Source of the DNA: Candidatus Cloacimonadota bacterium
GTDB lineage: Bacteria > Cloacimonadota > Cloacimonadia > Cloacimonadales > WRIO01
Reading direction: 5' to 3'
Assembly: GCA_009777575.1 (NCBI GenBank)
Contig: WRLO01000002.1
Span: 28,386 to 92,385, forward strand
Length of the DNA: 64,000 nucleotides
A program made the position numbers and the translations under genes. The notes under the pieces were generated by a model. The model was not told the origin of the DNA and did no database searches. It saw only the letters and a list, made by a program, of their open reading frames with translations. This document shows, piece by piece, positions 57,100 to 64,000 of this stretch (position 1 is the first letter of the stretch; the number at the start of each line of letters is the position of its first letter).

Positions 57100-60000
57100 A
57101 AAAGATAAAAGATAAAAGATACAAGTTACGAGTTACGAGTTACGGGTTACGAGTCGGAAAGTGCAAGAATAGAGCAGTTGGATTCTTGATTCTCCTTTTT
57201 TTACTATCACTAATTCAAGGATGCCCAACCCATAGCAAAGATGAACCTATCAGCGGGACAAGGACATATATAGATTTTGTAGACACAGGAAAAAGATTTG
57301 GTGTCGAGGCAGGCGATGTATATGGAGACCTTGCTAGAGATTTTTTCGTCGCTAGGTCTGTTAAGGAAAATATAAATATAGCTGATTTGTTAGACCCTCT
57401 TAAAAGAAAAAGAATAGATGCGATATTAGTGGGAAGTGATTATTTAACTCAATTGTTAGATTCAGGTATCTATAATGAGTTTGAATATTTATGGTTACCT
57501 GAATCTGTTTTTGTGAAAAAATCCTCATTTATATTTCATTCTGAGAGTTTGAGAGATCAATACAATGAGTGGTTTCAAGGTATCAAATCGGATGGAACTT
57601 TTCAGACAATTTTAGACAGGTGGTTGGGAGGCTCGCTACCCAATCATAGCGATATCCCTGTTTTTGAATTTAGTGATGAAAACGGCATCTTAAGAATCGC
57701 AGATACAGGAAATTACCCGCCTTTGAGTTATCTTGATGCACAAGGAAATTTAATTGGTTTTGGAGCAGAACTGGCAAGCCATTTTGCTCAGCATCTTGGT
57801 ATGAAACCAGAGTTTTCATTAATGCCATATGAAAATATAATTTCCAATGTCGTTTCTGAAAGAAATGATATGAGTTCAGCAACAATGTCTATTTCAGATT
57901 CAAGAAATAATGAACTTTTTTTTGGAGATCCTTCAAATATTACAAGAGCTGTTTTGATAGTGCCAAGAGGTCGAAAACTTGGTGTTGACATCTATGATTT
58001 TGTGGGACAGAGATTGGCAATATTAACAAGCTCTCATGCAAAAAATGTTGTTCAGGAAATTAAAGGATTTCCTGTCAGTTATGATAGTATTTCTGATGCA
58101 GTAGATTCTGTTCTGCGAAGCCAAATCCTTGGTTTTATGTCACCTTTTTCGGTCTTAAGATCAATCTCTATGTTAGAAGGTGGGGGACTTTTAGATGTTA
58201 TTGCTGTTCCAGTTGAAATTGACTATACAGCTGTTGGTGCAATGTCAATGAATCAAGATATTATTGACAGCTTTAATGATTTTCTGGAAATGATTACAAA
58301 CGATGGGACGCTACATAGTTTACAAAATAGATGGTTTATTTCGAATGTTGATTATAATCACAAAATTGATTATTTTCTCGATAATCCTCCCAATATGCAA
58401 GGAGCGAATCTACGAGTTGTTGTAAATGCTGAAGCAATACCTTATGTTTTCATTAATACTGATGGTAATTTTTCTGGATATAGCGCTGAGCTTGCGCTGC
58501 GATTTGGTGATTATATAGGGAGAAATATAGATTTTATTAATGCACCTTTTGGGGAAGTTATAAATATCGTTGAGCAAGGATTAGCTGATTTTAGTATAGA
58601 CAAATTTGGCATAACTGAAGAGAGACAGCAAAGAGTCTTATTTACAAACCCTATATATTCAGAACGAAATGGTATATTATTCTTGAGACAATTAGATGAC
58701 TCAAGAGAAGAGATAGATGATTATAGAAAATTTATTAATAAAAGAATAGGTATGTCTATAGGCTCGCTTGCAGAAGGAGTTACTATAAATCATTTGAAAG
58801 GTGTTCCTGTATTTTTTACTTACTACTCTGCATCCATAGCTGATTTAAGAGCAGGAAGAATTGATGGGCACATGTCAGATTTATCTACCCTAAATGCTTT
58901 AGCTGCTATGCCTGAAAACCACGATTTACATGTATATGAGATACCTAGCAGTATTTTTAGTTCTCCAATAGGTGCATTTTCAAATGACCAAGCTTTAATA
59001 GATAGATTTAATGCTTTTCTTACCGAATTAGAAAGGCTCGGTATGTTAAGAGAAATACAGAATCGTTGGTTTTCAACACCTATAAATCTTGACTCAAGAC
59101 TACATTCATTATCAAATGTAGGTGCAAATGGAGTTTTAAGGGTTGCAACCAGCGATGGAAGTCCTCCTTATTCTTTTGTAGGGAACGATGGAGAAATGCA
59201 AGGATACAGCATAGAGCTAATCAGATTGTTTGCCAATCATGAGGGTTTGATGATACGGTTTGCTGAAATGAATTTTGATGCTCTTTTGACTTATGTCAGC
59301 ACTGGTAGAGCTGACATAGGGATCTCCAATGTGAGTATTTCAGAAGGGCGAAGGCAGATAGTAAATTTTTCCAATCCCATTTACTTTGATAGATTTGGGA
59401 TATTAGCCTTAAAAACTGAAACTCAATTAGAAAATCAACCTCTTGTCCTAACAGATTTTTTTGGAAAAAGAATTGGAGTCACCTTTGGAACAAACTTTGA
59501 TAGTATTACAACAAATGTGATCCAAGGGATACCTGTTTATTACAATGATTTCAATTCGGCATTGACTGATATAATTGCTGGCAGATTAAATGGATACATG
59601 TTGAATTACACAGTGGCAAGTATGCTGGAAACTGTAGCATCATCAAGTTTTGAAATCATCGAATTGATGCCCACAGAAATGTTTATTACGCAAGTAGCCG
59701 CTATCTCTAAAAATAAAGATTTATTAGATAGGTTCAATCTTTTTTTAGAAAATATCACCACAGATGGCACTTTAAATGAGATACAAAGGACTTGGATGTT
59801 CTCTATGCCAAAACCAGATATCAGACTGACAGAATCTTCCTCAAGAGGTGAAAATGGCGTGTTAAGAGTTGTAACATCTGGAGCAACTTTACCTTTTTCT
59901 TTTTACAATGAAGACAATGAGCCTGTAGGTTTTAGTTTAGAAATTGCTAAAAGATTTGCAGATCATGAAAATATGAGCATAGATTTTGTTCACACAAACT

Positions 60001-60911
60001 TAAGTAGAATATTCAGATATATTGAGGATGACAACGCTGATATGGGTTTTGATTTATTTCAAATTCCTGAAGAACAGACAAGCAATATTCTTTATTCTGA
60101 CCCATTTTTCTTGTGTAATGCCTCAATAGTCGCTTTTAGAGACGCTCCAGATCAAAATGTTAATTATTTTTCTAAAGCATGTTCTTGGATACAAACAGGT
60201 ATTCAAAAAAATCTAATCACCGATAATCGTTGGAGATTGCTTTTAGATGGTTTCAAAATAACAATGTTCATTACGATTTTAGCACAAATTTTTGGAACCA
60301 TTCTGGGTAGCTTTATTTGCTTTTTAATGGTTAAAAAAAATAAATTTTTAAGAACTATTGGCAATCTTTATCATGAAATTATTTGTAGAATACCAAAAGT
60401 AGTATTGCTTTTAGTAGCATATTATATTCTTTTTAATAAAACATCGCTATCAAATGTTATGATAGCTGTTTTTGCCTTTACGATGATTGCCAGCTCCAAC
60501 ATTGCTAGAGTTTTTAGAAATTCATTTTACAATATCAATGTTATGGAAAAAGAAGCGGCAAAGACTTTAGGTTTTACGAATATACAAACTTTCATTTATA
60601 TCACTTTACCGCAATTAATTCAGCAATCAATTGTTGCCTACACAAAAGACTTTATAGAGCTTCTCAAAACGACTGCAATTGTTGGGTATATTGCTATCCA
60701 AGACTTGACAAGAGCAGGTGAAATAATCAGGAGTAGGACCTTTGATGCCTTTTTCCCTTTGTTAGTTGTTACACTCATTTATATGTTGGTCATTACAATA
60801 TCCATTTTTATTTTTAAGATTCTCGCTATGAAAATAAATAAAAATTTGCCTTTCTATGATAAATCTCTGCATGTTAACGCTCTTGACAAGCTTACAGGAG
60901 GTATCTCATGA
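57096..60911 (+). CDS. Fusion of multiple family-3 (polar amino acid) substrate-binding domains to an ABC permease
   Basis: Four GKRIG-type and four NG.LRV-type lobes; C-terminal TM domain with EAAKTLG (EAA) motif; ATGA overlaps on both sides. Confidence 0.88.
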   Translation: MKKIKDKRYKLRVTSYGLRVGKCKNRAVGFLILLFLLSLIQGCPTHSKDEPISGTRTYIDFVDTGKRFGVEAGDVYGDLARDFFVARSVKENINIADLLDPLKRKRIDAILVGSDYLTQLLDSGIYNEFEYLWLPESVFVKKSSFIFHSESLRDQYNEWFQGIKSDGTFQTILDRWLGGSLPNHSDIPVFEFSDENGILRIADTGNYPPLSYLDAQGNLIGFGAELASHFAQHLGMKPEFSLMPYENIISNVVSERNDMSSATMSISDSRNNELFFGDPSNITRAVLIVPRGRKLGVDIYDFVGQRLAILTSSHAKNVVQEIKGFPVSYDSISDAVDSVLRSQILGFMSPFSVLRSISMLEGGGLLDVIAVPVEIDYTAVGAMSMNQDIIDSFNDFLEMITNDGTLHSLQNRWFISNVDYNHKIDYFLDNPPNMQGANLRVVVNAEAIPYVFINTDGNFSGYSAELALRFGDYIGRNIDFINAPFGEVINIVEQGLADFSIDKFGITEERQQRVLFTNPIYSERNGILFLRQLDDSREEIDDYRKFINKRIGMSIGSLAEGVTINHLKGVPVFFTYYSASIADLRAGRIDGHMSDLSTLNALAAMPENHDLHVYEIPSSIFSSPIGAFSNDQALIDRFNAFLTELERLGMLREIQNRWFSTPINLDSRLHSLSNVGANGVLRVATSDGSPPYSFVGNDGEMQGYSIELIRLFANHEGLMIRFAEMNFDALLTYVSTGRADIGISNVSISEGRRQIVNFSNPIYFDRFGILALKTETQLENQPLVLTDFFGKRIGVTFGTNFDSITTNVIQGIPVYYNDFNSALTDIIAGRLNGYMLNYTVASMLETVASSSFEIIELMPTEMFITQVAAISKNKDLLDRFNLFLENITTDGTLNEIQRTWMFSMPKPDIRLTESSSRGENGVLRVVTSGATLPFSFYNEDNEPVGFSLEIAKRFADHENMSIDFVHTNLSRIFRYIEDDNADMGFDLFQIPEEQTSNILYSDPFFLCNASIVAFRDAPDQNVNYFSKACSWIQTGIQKNLITDNRWRLLLDGFKITMFITILAQIFGTILGSFICFLMVKKNKFLRTIGNLYHEIICRIPKVVLLLVAYYILFNKTSLSNVMIAVFAFTMIASSNIARVFRNSFYNINVMEKEAAKTLGFTNIQTFIYITLPQLIQQSIVAYTKDFIELLKTTAIVGYIAIQDLTRAGEIIRSRTFDAFFPLLVVTLIYMLVITISIFIFKILAMKINKNLPFYDKSLHVNALDKLTGGIS
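57101..57156 (+). repeat. Eight consecutive degenerate heptamers at the 5' end of the CDS
   Basis: AAAGATA x3, CAAGTTA, CGAGTTA x2, CGGGTTA, CGAGTCG. Confidence 0.75.
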
Positions 60912-61996
60912 ACATTCTTTCAATAAAAAATCTCTGTAAACAATACGGTGAAAAGACTGTTTTACAAAATGTCAACATCGATATAAAAAAAGGGGAAATT
61001 ATAGCTATAATAGGACATTCTGGTTCTGGAAAAAGTTCATTATTAAGAGCTATAAATTATCTTGACCCACCAACATCTGGTGAAATTTATATTTTTGATA
61101 AAAAAATAGAACAAAAAGATATATCTTCCATTAGACAAAAAATTGGTTTGGTAGATAATCAGACTGAGTTGTTCAGCAATCTTACTGTCATTGAAAACAT
61201 GATGTTAGGGCAATTGTGTCTGTGTGGGGTTACAAAAATGGTTGCTAAAGATAATTCTATGTTACTATTGAAATCAGTAGGTCTTGTAGAAAAAGCAAAT
61301 TTTTATCCACATCAATTAACTAAAAGTCAAAAACTGAGAATTGCTATTGTCAGATGTCTTTCCATGAATCCAAATATCTTGCTTCTTGATGATCCCACAA
61401 AAGATTTAGAACACATTGCTTCAAATGAAGTAATGACAATAATCAAAAATTTAACACAAACATCTTTTCCGAGTAAAGACCTGACTATCCTGATGTCCAC
61501 TAGTGATAGAGACTTTATTCGTAATGCTGCTACCAGAGTTCTTTATTTAGATGAAATGGGTATTTATGAAGAAGGAAGCCCTGTCAAAATATTGGAAAAA
61601 CCTAAAAAAACTTTGACAAAAGGATATATAAACAATCTTTGCTCTTTTAAATATGATGTTATAAGCAAAGATTTTGATTTTGTTGAGTTTTTTAGTGCTA
61701 TCGACAGTTATTGTATTCGCTATTTTATAGAAAAGAAAACAGCTATTAAACTAAGATTATTGGCTGAAGAAATGGTTATTAATATTGTTACACCTATATA
61801 TAAGGCTTGTAAATTGAAAATGAGTTATTCTGAAAAATCAGACTCATATCTGCTCTCAATTTCTTATCTTGGTGATGATACAAATGCTCTCGAAATAACT
61901 GATGACCTAATCTCAGTTAAAATGGTGAAAAAATGCACTACAAAGATTTGGCATACATACAAAGATGGTGAGAATGTCGTAAATTTGGAATTTTAA
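60908..61996 (+). CDS. GlnQ-like ABC ATP-binding protein with degenerate catalytic motifs and a C-terminal RsbW-like domain
   Basis: Walker A GHSGSGKS intact; signature LTKSQ, Walker B LLDDPT, H-loop STSD; tail EEMVINIV..MVKK..DGENVVNL. Confidence 0.82.
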   Translation: MNILSIKNLCKQYGEKTVLQNVNIDIKKGEIIAIIGHSGSGKSSLLRAINYLDPPTSGEIYIFDKKIEQKDISSIRQKIGLVDNQTELFSNLTVIENMMLGQLCLCGVTKMVAKDNSMLLLKSVGLVEKANFYPHQLTKSQKLRIAIVRCLSMNPNILLLDDPTKDLEHIASNEVMTIIKNLTQTSFPSKDLTILMSTSDRDFIRNAATRVLYLDEMGIYEEGSPVKILEKPKKTLTKGYINNLCSFKYDVISKDFDFVEFFSAIDSYCIRYFIEKKTAIKLRLLAEEMVINIVTPIYKACKLKMSYSEKSDSYLLSISYLGDDTNALEITDDLISVKMVKKCTTKIWHTYKDGENVVNLEF

Positions 61997-62074: not shown

Positions 62075-62476
62075 ATGCTACCAGAAAACGAACTTTTAAT
62101 AGAGTCAATACCAGAAAACCATAGTATGGTAATGGATTTTGTCGACAGTCAAATTTCAGATTGTCCAGACGATGTCAAAGATCAAATCAATATTGCTGTA
62201 GATGAGATATATTCAAATATAGTTCAATATGCCTATCATCCTGAAACTGGTGGTGTAAAAATCCGTATCACTGTCACTGATGTTATCATATTGGAATTTG
62301 AAGACAAAGGAATTCCCTATAACCCGCTGACTGAAGAAACTCCAGATATCAATAAACCTATTGAAGAAAGACCATTAGGGGGGCTCGGCGTGTTTATGGT
62401 GAAAAAACTGATGGATTCTGTTGAATATAAAAGAGTGGGCGGGAAAAATTTGCTGATTTTAAGAAAAAAACTATGA
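62075..62476 (+). CDS. Anti-sigma factor Ser/Thr kinase (RsbW/SpoIIAB-like HATPase_c)
   Basis: DEIYSNIV (N-box), EDKG and GGLGVFMVKKLMD motifs; AGGAG RBS. Confidence 0.93.
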   Translation: MLPENELLIESIPENHSMVMDFVDSQISDCPDDVKDQINIAVDEIYSNIVQYAYHPETGGVKIRITVTDVIILEFEDKGIPYNPLTEETPDINKPIEERPLGGLGVFMVKKLMDSVEYKRVGGKNLLILRKKL

Positions 62477-62497: not shown

Positions 62498-63652
62498 ATG
62501 TTTGATCTGAAAAATTTATATATTATACGAAAAAAATTTCATCGGATACCTGAACTTGCTTTCCAAGAAATCAAGACTCAAGATTTGATTTTAAGTGAAT
62601 TTGCTGATAAAAGCATGATGAAATCAACATTGCCTTTGAGTAAAGAAGCTAATACAGCCCCTTTGTTGTTAACAAAATTTGAACCTACTGGTTTATTATA
62701 TGAATATGCAAATGGTGATGGTGACTACATTCTTTTCAGGGCAGATATGGATGCTCTACCGATAAAAGAAGAAACTGGATGTGATTTTCAATCAGAGCAT
62801 AGCGGTGTATCACATGCCTGCGGGCACGACATACATTTGACTATATTGATAGGTTTGATCCATTATGTAATTAAGTATAAACTAAAAAAAAATATACTTT
62901 TCCTTTTTCAACCAGCAGAAGAAGGTCACGGAGGTGCAGAACATATCATAAAAACTGGGGTTTTTGAAAAATATAAAATAAAAGCCGCTTTTGCTCTGCA
63001 TATAACAGGACAATATCCAACTGGTTCTATAGGCATAAAATCTGGAATTTTCTTTGGTATCCCACAAGAATTTGATATAGAATTTTTTGGTAAATCAGGG
63101 CATGTAGCAACCCCTCAGAAAGGTAACGATGCTTTTATGGCTGGAATGCTGTATTATCAGATGATAAAAAATATGCTTTCCAATAGATTTCCAGCTCAAG
63201 AGCCTATCATTTTTCATATTGGTAAGATTTCATCTGGCTCTGTCAGAAATAGTATTCCTGATTATTGCAAATTTGAGGGGACTTTTCGCTGTCTTAAAAA
63301 AGAGGTTCGAGATAGTATTTTAAATATGCTCCAAAAATCTTCAGAAATGCTCGAAAACTTCACAGAAATAAAAATCAAAGTAACAACCCTATCTTCTTAT
63401 GATCCTGTCGTAAACGATGATTTTTTAACAAAATTCTTAATAGAATCATTACCAGAGGATATAAATGTCCATTATGCTGATTATACAATGACTGGTGAGG
63501 ATTTTGGCTTTTTTTCTGGATTGTTTCCAAGTGTTCTTTTCTGGCTTGGGACAAATAGCAATGATGATTTACATTCAAATAAATTTTTACCAGATGAAAA
63601 AAGTATAGAAATAGCTTTGAGAATATATAAAAACATTTTAGAAAAAATCTGA
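62498..63652 (+). CDS. M20-family amidohydrolase (N-acetyldiaminopimelate deacetylase-like)
   Basis: HRIPEL, RADMDALP, HACGHD, FQPAEEG and GEDFG motifs. Confidence 0.88.
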   Translation: MFDLKNLYIIRKKFHRIPELAFQEIKTQDLILSEFADKSMMKSTLPLSKEANTAPLLLTKFEPTGLLYEYANGDGDYILFRADMDALPIKEETGCDFQSEHSGVSHACGHDIHLTILIGLIHYVIKYKLKKNILFLFQPAEEGHGGAEHIIKTGVFEKYKIKAAFALHITGQYPTGSIGIKSGIFFGIPQEFDIEFFGKSGHVATPQKGNDAFMAGMLYYQMIKNMLSNRFPAQEPIIFHIGKISSGSVRNSIPDYCKFEGTFRCLKKEVRDSILNMLQKSSEMLENFTEIKIKVTTLSSYDPVVNDDFLTKFLIESLPEDINVHYADYTMTGEDFGFFSGLFPSVLFWLGTNSNDDLHSNKFLPDEKSIEIALRIYKNILEKI

Positions 63653-63706
63653 TGACTATTTTAGAGTTATCTCATAAATATATTACTAAATATTAAGGAG
63701 AAAAAA

Positions 63707-64000
63707 ATGTTTTTCGACCCAACATTTTTGCTGTTAATTCCCGTAATGATATTGGCTATCTGGGCACAAACAAATGTCAAAAGTTCATACAAAAAGTATA
63801 GTCAAGTCAAAAATTCAATTAATATCTCTGGAGCTGAAGCTGCAGAGCAAATACTCAAGAAAAACGGTATTTATGATGTCCCCGTGCATGTCGGTAAAGG
63901 ATTTTTGATAGACCATTATCATCCGGGTAAAAAAGAGGTTGTCCTATCCGAAGAGGTTTATTATGGAACATCAATAGCTTCTCTAAGCATAGCTGCCCAT
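63707..64000 (+). CDS. YugP-like neutral zinc metallopeptidase, truncated by the window end
   Basis: AAGGAG RBS; MFFDPTFLLLIP..SGAEAA..L..DHYHP..SIAAH, ending where the HExxH motif would begin. Confidence 0.8.
   Translation, partial: MFFDPTFLLLIPVMILAIWAQTNVKSSYKKYSQVKNSINISGAEAAEQILKKNGIYDVPVHVGKGFLIDHYHPGKKEVVLSEEVYYGTSIASLSIAAH

Follow-up and report, generated by a model that had tools for sequence, protein, structure and literature searches.

What can an ATP-binding cassette (ABC) ATPase do when its catalytic motifs have been replaced and its chain continues into a domain resembling an anti-sigma kinase? The question is raised by a stretch of 64,000 nucleotides (the window; contig WRLO01000002.1, positions 28,386 to 92,385) from a bacterium of the Cloacimonadota whose genome shows 3.76 Mb and 33% G+C. 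The window contains, at 60908-61996 on the + strand, an open reading frame (ORF) named P0001, which encodes 362 aa in an uninterrupted frame from an ATG at 60908 to a stop codon at 61994-61996; the frame opens within the last 4 bp of the upstream permease gene (ATGA, where ATG and TGA overlap), with an AGGAGG ribosome-binding site in front of it. A sequence-only reading of the window had described P0001 as a doubly degenerate fusion of a pseudo-ATPase and a pseudo-RsbW domain, which would dock on the permease as a nucleotide-binding scaffold. The gene lies in an operon that also encodes partner-switching proteins, and it seems reasonably probable that P0001 is part of a non-transporting ligand receptor feeding a partner switch through its pseudo-RsbW tail.

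The nucleotide-binding domain (NBD) of P0001 matches Pfam ABC_tran (PF00005) over residues 19-164 (7e-31, 108.1 bits against a cutoff of 25), and its best NCBIfam model is GlnQ (NF007027), at 180.6 bits, far under the cutoff of 379, so that P0001 falls outside the GlnQ equivalog. The full-length AlphaFold model (pLDDT 90.3) shows its Foldseek match to 4yms_A over ~243 residues (E 6e-27, TMt 0.95, rmsd 1.3), and further matches to ArtP 2olj and HisP 1b0u (TMt 0.89-0.95), MetNI and MlaF. On these similarities, P0001 is assigned to the GlnQ/ArtP-type polar-amino-acid ABC ATPases. With the full-length model, the Foldseek matches cover the NBD alone and none covers the tail, for which a separate tail-only model was therefore used. 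The motifs were compared in an alignment of 120 full-length homologs, the best of 1697, and 114 of the 120 show the canonical set GPSGxGKST / VFQ / LSGGQxQR / LFDEPTSxLDP / VTHEM, while the equivalents in P0001 are GHSGSGKS / VDN / LTKSQ / LLDDPTKDLE / STSDR. Walker A is intact (residues 36-43, DNA 61013-61036), and Walker B retains its Asp (ILLLD161). In the Q-loop, V82-D83-N84 replaces V-F-Q; in the signature, L137-T-K-S-Q141 (61316-61330) replaces LSGGQ; D162 replaces the catalytic Glu, K165-D-L-E168 replaces the SALD of the D-loop, and S199 replaces the His of the H-loop. All five substitutions had been pointed out by the sequence-only reading and are borne out against the 114 canonical homologs; Walker A, which it considered the only intact motif, is joined by the surviving D161. 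With five catalytic or dimerisation motifs replaced, P0001 is predicted not to be a catalytically competent ABC ATPase. In ABC proteins, ATP lies at the interface of two NBDs, one contributing Walker A, Walker B, Q-loop and H-loop and the other its signature. Given this geometry, the motif losses would leave a P0001 dimer without a competent site, both ATP sites of the homodimer being dead.

Direct searches with the tail give little: BLASTP of residues 240-362 against the adjacent RsbW aligns the last strand only, at a non-significant E of 0.25, Pfam shows no HATPase_c_2 match on the P0001 tail alone, and a tail profile against PDB sequences finds nothing beyond a chance-level match to ykuJ (E 0.1). 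Among the tails of the family, 20 of 35 match Pfam HATPase_c_2 (PF13581), the best at 1.1e-7, and the family tail alignment matches that of six operon RsbWs in hhalign with 98.3% probability (E 2.2e-14, 116 columns). A hidden Markov model (HMM) of the tail was run against every ORF of the genome, where it matches the three paralogs first, then the adjacent RsbW (E 0.001) and, from another contig, a PP2C-RsbW fusion; in other genomes it matches operon RsbWs at 1e-7 to 2e-9. The tail-only AlphaFold (AF2) model (pLDDT 92.5) shows the order beta-alpha-alpha-beta-beta-alpha-beta-beta, and its top 18 Foldseek matches in PDB are all anti-sigma Ser kinases of the SpoIIAB/RsbW/SiaB/UsfX group (E 1e-4 to 9e-3, probability 1.0, TMq 0.54-0.71), including 1tid_A, 1l0o_A, 6kko, 8jzt, 6m37 and 8ih8. 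By profile and modelled fold, the tail is thus identified as a Bergerat-fold domain homologous to RsbW/SpoIIAB, as the sequence-only reading had supposed from segments aligned by eye, which the profile-profile alignment reproduces.

In this alignment, the tail segment LLAEEMVINIV stands at the N-box IAVDEIYSNIV of RsbW, with E288 and N292 retained, and ISYLGDDTNAL stands at the G1 segment FEDKGIPYNPL, with G322 and N326 retained and Tyr320 at the position of the adenine-binding Asp77. A 12-residue gap between L334 and I335 corresponds to RsbW 92-103, a stretch that takes in the ATP lid and the leading two Gly of GGLG, and S336 stands at the last G2 glycine (RsbW G105). Further aligned pairs are ISVKMVKK with LGVFMVKK and DGENVVNLE with GGKNLLILR. 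Since the adenine-binding Asp, the ATP lid and a complete G2 box are missing, the family tail is predicted to be unable to act as a kinase. The losses of the G1 Asp and of G2 were thus read correctly from the sequence alone, but the N-box Glu and Asn are retained, so some Bergerat motifs remain. The PP2C-RsbW fusion found with the tail HMM lies outside the window (C35:17298-19811, L012) and has 837 aa, with a Cache-like periplasmic sensor, HAMP, PP2C and an RsbW kinase domain; this C-terminal domain is canonical (FEDLGKPFNPL...GGLGVY), and the phosphatase and the kinase of a partner switch are joined there in one chain.

The NBD + tail architecture is not particular to P0001. The family is widespread, with 1697 homologs; of clusters at the 50% identity level, 374 match at E<=1e-10 and 1348 at E<=1e-3. 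Its members are found in Cloacimonadota, Bacteroidota, Clostridia, Bacillota and Coriobacteriales, and carry the tail invariably at the C-terminus. In P0175 (1150 aa), P0198, P0242 and P0139, the binding domain or domains, permease, NBD and RsbW-like tail are in one chain, which makes up a whole half-transporter. The G1 position is Tyr or Ser in the 120 sampled members and Asp in none of them, and the N-box Asn is found in 49; D257 is present in all 120 and E288 in 118, S308, G322 and N356 are also nearly invariant, and the tail family carries a SYSEK motif of its own. Because the G1 Asp is absent in 120/120, the tail would already be a pseudo-kinase in the relatives with canonical ATPases, and its kinase-dead state is predicted to be ancestral to the family.

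The loss of ATPase motifs has a different distribution. The degenerate sequences, P0001-P0005 and P0021, form one clade of six (SH-aLRT 100, stem 0.42) with 45-69% identity among them, sister to a canonical clade that contains the third paralog of the same genome (contig C60); P0005 is a second degenerate paralog in this genome, on contig C12. Both halves of P0001 are degenerate, as the sequence-only reading had it, but the two losses differ in age, the dead kinase being family-wide and the ATPase loss clade-specific. Since the nearest homolog of P0001 is 57% identical, synonymous sites are saturated, and decay was tested by conservation within the clade. Walker A is still GxxGxGK[ST] in all six sequences. 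The catalytic motifs are the least conserved regions of the degenerate clade (majority fraction 0.56-0.69) and the most conserved ones of the canonical relatives (0.93-1.0), while the helix after Walker A shows 0.85 in both groups and the tail shows 0.67 and 0.75, respectively. Mean pairwise identity of the ABC domain and the tail is 53 and 48% in the degenerate clade, and 74 and 56% in the canonical relatives. The pattern indicates that the catalytic constraint is gone and that structural, nucleotide-binding and tail constraints are retained, which is the opposite of what a decaying gene would show.

The co-directional row of genes around P0001 begins with a STAS gene after a gap of 756 bp and contains the following features:

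54573..54878, + strand: STAS anti-sigma-antagonist-like protein, 101 aa, first gene of the operon (Pfam STAS 1.1e-14, STAS_2 2.9e-14)
54904..57099, + strand: membrane dCache-HAMP-PP2C phosphatase of SpoIIE/RsbU type, 731 aa (Pfam SpoIIE 4.3e-45, dCache_1 1.9e-20, HAMP 1.5e-11)
57096..60911, + strand: multiple SBP_bac_3 domains fused to one type-I importer permease domain, 1271 aa (Pfam SBP_bac_3 1.7e-98 in five stretches, BPD_transp_1 1.3e-13)
60908..61627, + strand: degenerate ABC NBD, aa 1-240 of P0001 (Pfam ABC_tran 7e-31)
61628..61996, + strand: predicted RsbW/SpoIIAB-like pseudo-kinase domain, aa 241-362 of P0001, and stop codon (hhalign, AF2, Foldseek)
62075..62476, + strand: canonical RsbW-type Ser kinase/anti-sigma-like protein, 133 aa (Pfam HATPase_c_2 2.4e-20)
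62498..63652, + strand: M20 peptidase/amidohydrolase, 21 nt downstream of the RsbW gene (Pfam Peptidase_M20 8.5e-37, M20_dimer 7.9e-11)

The locus thus encodes a partner-switching set, with a STAS protein of phosphorylatable Ser, a SpoIIE-type PP2C and an RsbW-type kinase. The STAS protein retains the phospho-Ser position of SpoIIAA/RsbV (YISSAGL), and RsbW shows intact N-box, G1 (D77xG79) and G2 (GGLG) at the invariant columns of the RsbW alignment. By ORF map and Pfam, no sigma-factor gene was found between 54573 and 64000. Pfam finds only one ABC_tran gene in the operon, beside one permease gene, and the permease fusion shows an EAA-type coupling motif (EKEAAKTLG...ITLPQ). The M20 peptidase gene is possibly the last of the same transcription unit; it is followed by a Zn_peptidase_2 gene (window 62498-64000), and an SDF-family symporter gene follows the equivalent operon of a Paludibacteraceae relative (L039), neighbours which hint that the output of the operon concerns amino-acid or peptide supply. 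The PP2C of the window shows DVSEKG where both paralogs of the same genome show DVSGKG, and a ~45-residue insert rich in E/K/N/Q (SKQKIEQEKDNSENNPIEKQIDEDN) divides its Pfam SpoIIE match into two stretches. On the far side of the 756-bp gap before the STAS gene lies a 2082-aa ORF (47568-53816).

Partner-switching genes also recur beside other members of the family. Neighbours were detected by seed-based phmmer and not with full Pfam models, and tail-less GlnQ-type loci from the full-length alignment search, scanned in the same way, were used as control. PP2C/STAS/RsbW genes adjoin eight of 24 tail-bearing loci and none of 74 tail-less loci (Fisher 4.7e-6, or 8e-5 when counted as six lineages). 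The loci with such neighbours are the window, C60, G198, G199, G119/G120, a Bacteroidota genome, a Paludibacteraceae metagenome-assembled genome and the locus of P0002. The C60 locus of the same genome (C60:4427-9946, L011) contains a PP2C, a permease fusion with three substrate-binding domains (SBDs), a canonical NBD-tail and then directly a STAS gene, and shows no RsbW. Two other Cloacimonadota genera show the gene order PP2C-STAS-RsbW-SBP-permease-NBD-tail, and two further genera have the PP2C/STAS/RsbW triad ~5 kb from the NBD-tail. The Bacteroidota genome shows NBD-tail, SBP and STAS, then REC-PP2C, RsbW and two STAS genes; the Paludibacteraceae genome shows PP2C, NBD-tail, RsbW, permease and SDF symporter; and in the closest ortholog, P0002, RsbW is next after the NBD-tail. 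With STAS as the most consistent neighbour, placed directly after the NBD-tail on C60 where RsbW is missing, the gene order favours STAS as the common tail partner. In the P0013 locus, a close relative, a 264-aa protein with no Pfam match is encoded directly after the canonical NBD-tail gene (L004:11109-11903) and could be another tail partner.

From these data, a mechanism can be proposed for the non-transporting receptor. With a single gene each for NBD and permease in the operon, the complex would be (SBD4-TMD)2(NBD-tail)2, where TMD is the transmembrane domain, in a GlnPQ-like arrangement. P0001 probably still binds nucleotide and, as the permease keeps its coupling motif, probably docks on the coupling helix, yet it would power no transport. 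A ligand on the tethered binding domains would shift the conformation of the TMD and NBD, and this would alter the engagement of the cytoplasmic pseudo-RsbW tails with the partner-switching proteins of the operon. The tail could bind the unphosphorylated STAS protein, in the way SpoIIAA is bound by SpoIIAB, or else pair with the genuine RsbW across an interface like that of the SpoIIAB dimer, and an amino-acid signal would thereby join the input from dCache-PP2C. In the relatives with a canonical ATPase, the phosphorylation state of STAS would most likely regulate transport via the same tail, as may be compared with MlaB on MlaF. Gene-neighbourhood statistics are the evidence for the part of this mechanism in which the tail would be a scaffold presenting an interaction surface.

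Several points weigh against such a receptor. The conservation of Walker A suggests that nucleotide binding still matters, and P0001 may hydrolyse ATP slowly or in an unconventional way. Two thirds of the tail-bearing loci show no partner-switching gene in the flanks seen, and the role of the tail may be more general than partner switching; the loci counted are not phylogenetically independent, and the seed-based detection of neighbours bears on the count as well. In the other dead subclade, that of P0004, P0005 and P0021, the gene is followed by proteins with an uncharacterised N-domain plus REC and by a hybrid kinase, not by STAS or RsbW, which argues that the partner of the tail is not fixed; in one case of this subclade, a dCache hybrid kinase comes after the dead-ATPase gene. 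The dead clade thus shows a signalling context in every case seen, with differing partners. The P0005 locus (C12:46630-55938, L001/L010) contains a binding-domain/permease fusion of 1268 aa, two paralogous N-domain + REC proteins and a dCache hybrid histidine kinase, and the ~140-aa helical N-domain of the REC proteins has no Pfam match.

The loci without partner-switching neighbours, which include both copies of Anoxybacterium hadale, would be expected if the tail had no protein partner and either bound a small molecule in the remnant of the Bergerat pocket, with trans-inhibition like that of MetN C2 or ModC, or formed a SpoIIAB-like dimer joining the NBDs. The near invariance of E288 (118/120) and D257 (120/120) is likewise what a conserved pocket or interface would show, and there are well-known cases of C-terminal regulatory domains dimerising beneath NBDs; the Foldseek matches of the NBD include MetNI. 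A partnerless tail is nevertheless unlikely: the deleted ATP lid, the G1 Asp absent in 120/120 and the N-box Asn limited to 49/120 leave no conserved nucleotide-type pocket, and the enrichment of PP2C/STAS/RsbW genes (8/24 vs 0/74) would be unexplained.

The tail could also stand at the output end of the switch, so that PP2C, RsbW and STAS sense through dCache and STAS on the tail turns the ABC complex on or off, the dead clade then doing something that needs no ATP, for example gated facilitated diffusion or ligand sequestering. Most members of the family combine this tail with a canonical ATPase, often beside the same neighbours, from which transport regulation is likely to be the ancestral role; the PP2C has an extracellular dCache sensor of its own; and a precedent is MlaB-MlaF (PMC7367683), where a STAS protein regulates an ABC ATPase. 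For P0001 this arrangement is quite unlikely, since there would be no hydrolysis left to regulate, and the dead clade has the largest binding-domain arrays (permease fusions of 1231-1271 aa versus 748-1005 aa in canonical relatives), which suit sensing better.

It is very improbable that P0001 still drives transport in a heterodimer with one working site, its partner being a canonical NBD from another locus such as the C60 paralog. A canonical paralog does exist in the same genome, and ABC heterodimers with one degenerate site are common in general, but P0001 has neither a catalytic side of its own (Q-loop, Glu, His) nor a signature to donate, so both composite sites would be impaired, and each paralog has its own translationally coupled permease; this rescue was rejected on both grounds. 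That P0001 is a decaying gene, a recent pseudogene still uninterrupted, is hardly credible and was rejected: many catalytic residues are indeed gone together, but the 362-aa frame, ribosome-binding site and translational coupling are intact, the same degenerate state is common to the monophyletic six, two of them paralogs of this genome, Walker A, tail and structural core stay conserved, and P0002 keeps its synteny with RsbW.

The receptor proposed for P0001 resembles several known systems in part. In MlaF-MlaB, an ABC ATPase is regulated by a bound STAS-domain protein, and the C-terminal extension of the NBD is regulatory (PMC7367683); both this system and the P0001 locus encode an ABC NBD with a single-domain STAS protein. 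The STAS protein of Mla contacts the NBD itself and its short C-terminal extension, the system has neither a Bergerat domain nor a kinase nor a phosphatase, and its ATPase, MlaF, is active. The P0001 system shares with GlnPQ-type importers (GlnQ, ArtP, HisP and the Lactococcus GlnPQ) the NBD fold, the SBP_bac_3-permease fusion and the implied homodimer, and differs in the five lost motifs, in the extra RsbW-like C-terminal domain of ~120 aa and in the number of binding-domain units (four or five, against one or two in GlnPQ). The tail is like RsbW/SpoIIAB/SiaB (HATPase_c_2) in fold, order of secondary structure, N-box Glu/Asn, G1 Gly, NxL motif and C-terminal GxN strand, and differs in its fusion to an ABC NBD, in the Tyr at the G1 Asp, the 12-residue deletion of lid and G2 and the SYSEK motif, and in being sub-threshold in Pfam. 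Heterodimeric ABC exporters (TAP1/2, TM287/288, CFTR site 1) have one of their two composite sites degenerate, and the other drives transport. They show the same kinds of substitution, with the catalytic Glu changed to Asp, the H-loop His lost and a non-canonical signature, whereas in P0001 a single type of NBD carries both degenerate halves and no consensus site would form. The MetN C2, MalK/CysA TOBE-like and ModC domains occupy the same position directly after the NBD, and the tail would likely dimerise beneath the NBD as they do, but it is of predicted Bergerat fold, not ACT-like or TOBE, and its genomic link is to partner switching, not to trans-inhibition by substrate.

Neither Pfam nor NCBIfam has a model for the architecture of NBD + RsbW-like tail, the PDB sequence and Foldseek searches found no solved structure with it, and a full-text literature search found no description of such a fusion. 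Its components all have precedents, since degenerate NBDs, pseudo-kinases and partner switching are known, as are importer NBDs with a C-terminal regulatory domain. To our knowledge, the signal input and the targets of partner switching outside Bacillota and Actinomycetota are mostly unknown. The family suggests a concrete wiring, in which an RsbW-like pseudo-kinase domain is fused to the motor subunit of an ABC transporter, and P0001 would add a homodimeric, fully degenerate NBD to the ABC proteins that have abandoned transport. One genome offers a natural comparison between a working ATPase (C60) and two dead ones (C2, C12), in three signalling contexts: STAS/PP2C/RsbW on C2, STAS/PP2C only on C60, and REC proteins with a hybrid kinase on C12. 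It is conceivable, if still short of likely, that ABC importers with a built-in kinase-dead RsbW domain are an unrecognised direct link between nutrient transport and partner switching, and that the Cloacimonadota clade is its end point, where both ATP sites would be dead and a multi-domain receptor would capture or release STAS (or RsbW) at the membrane.

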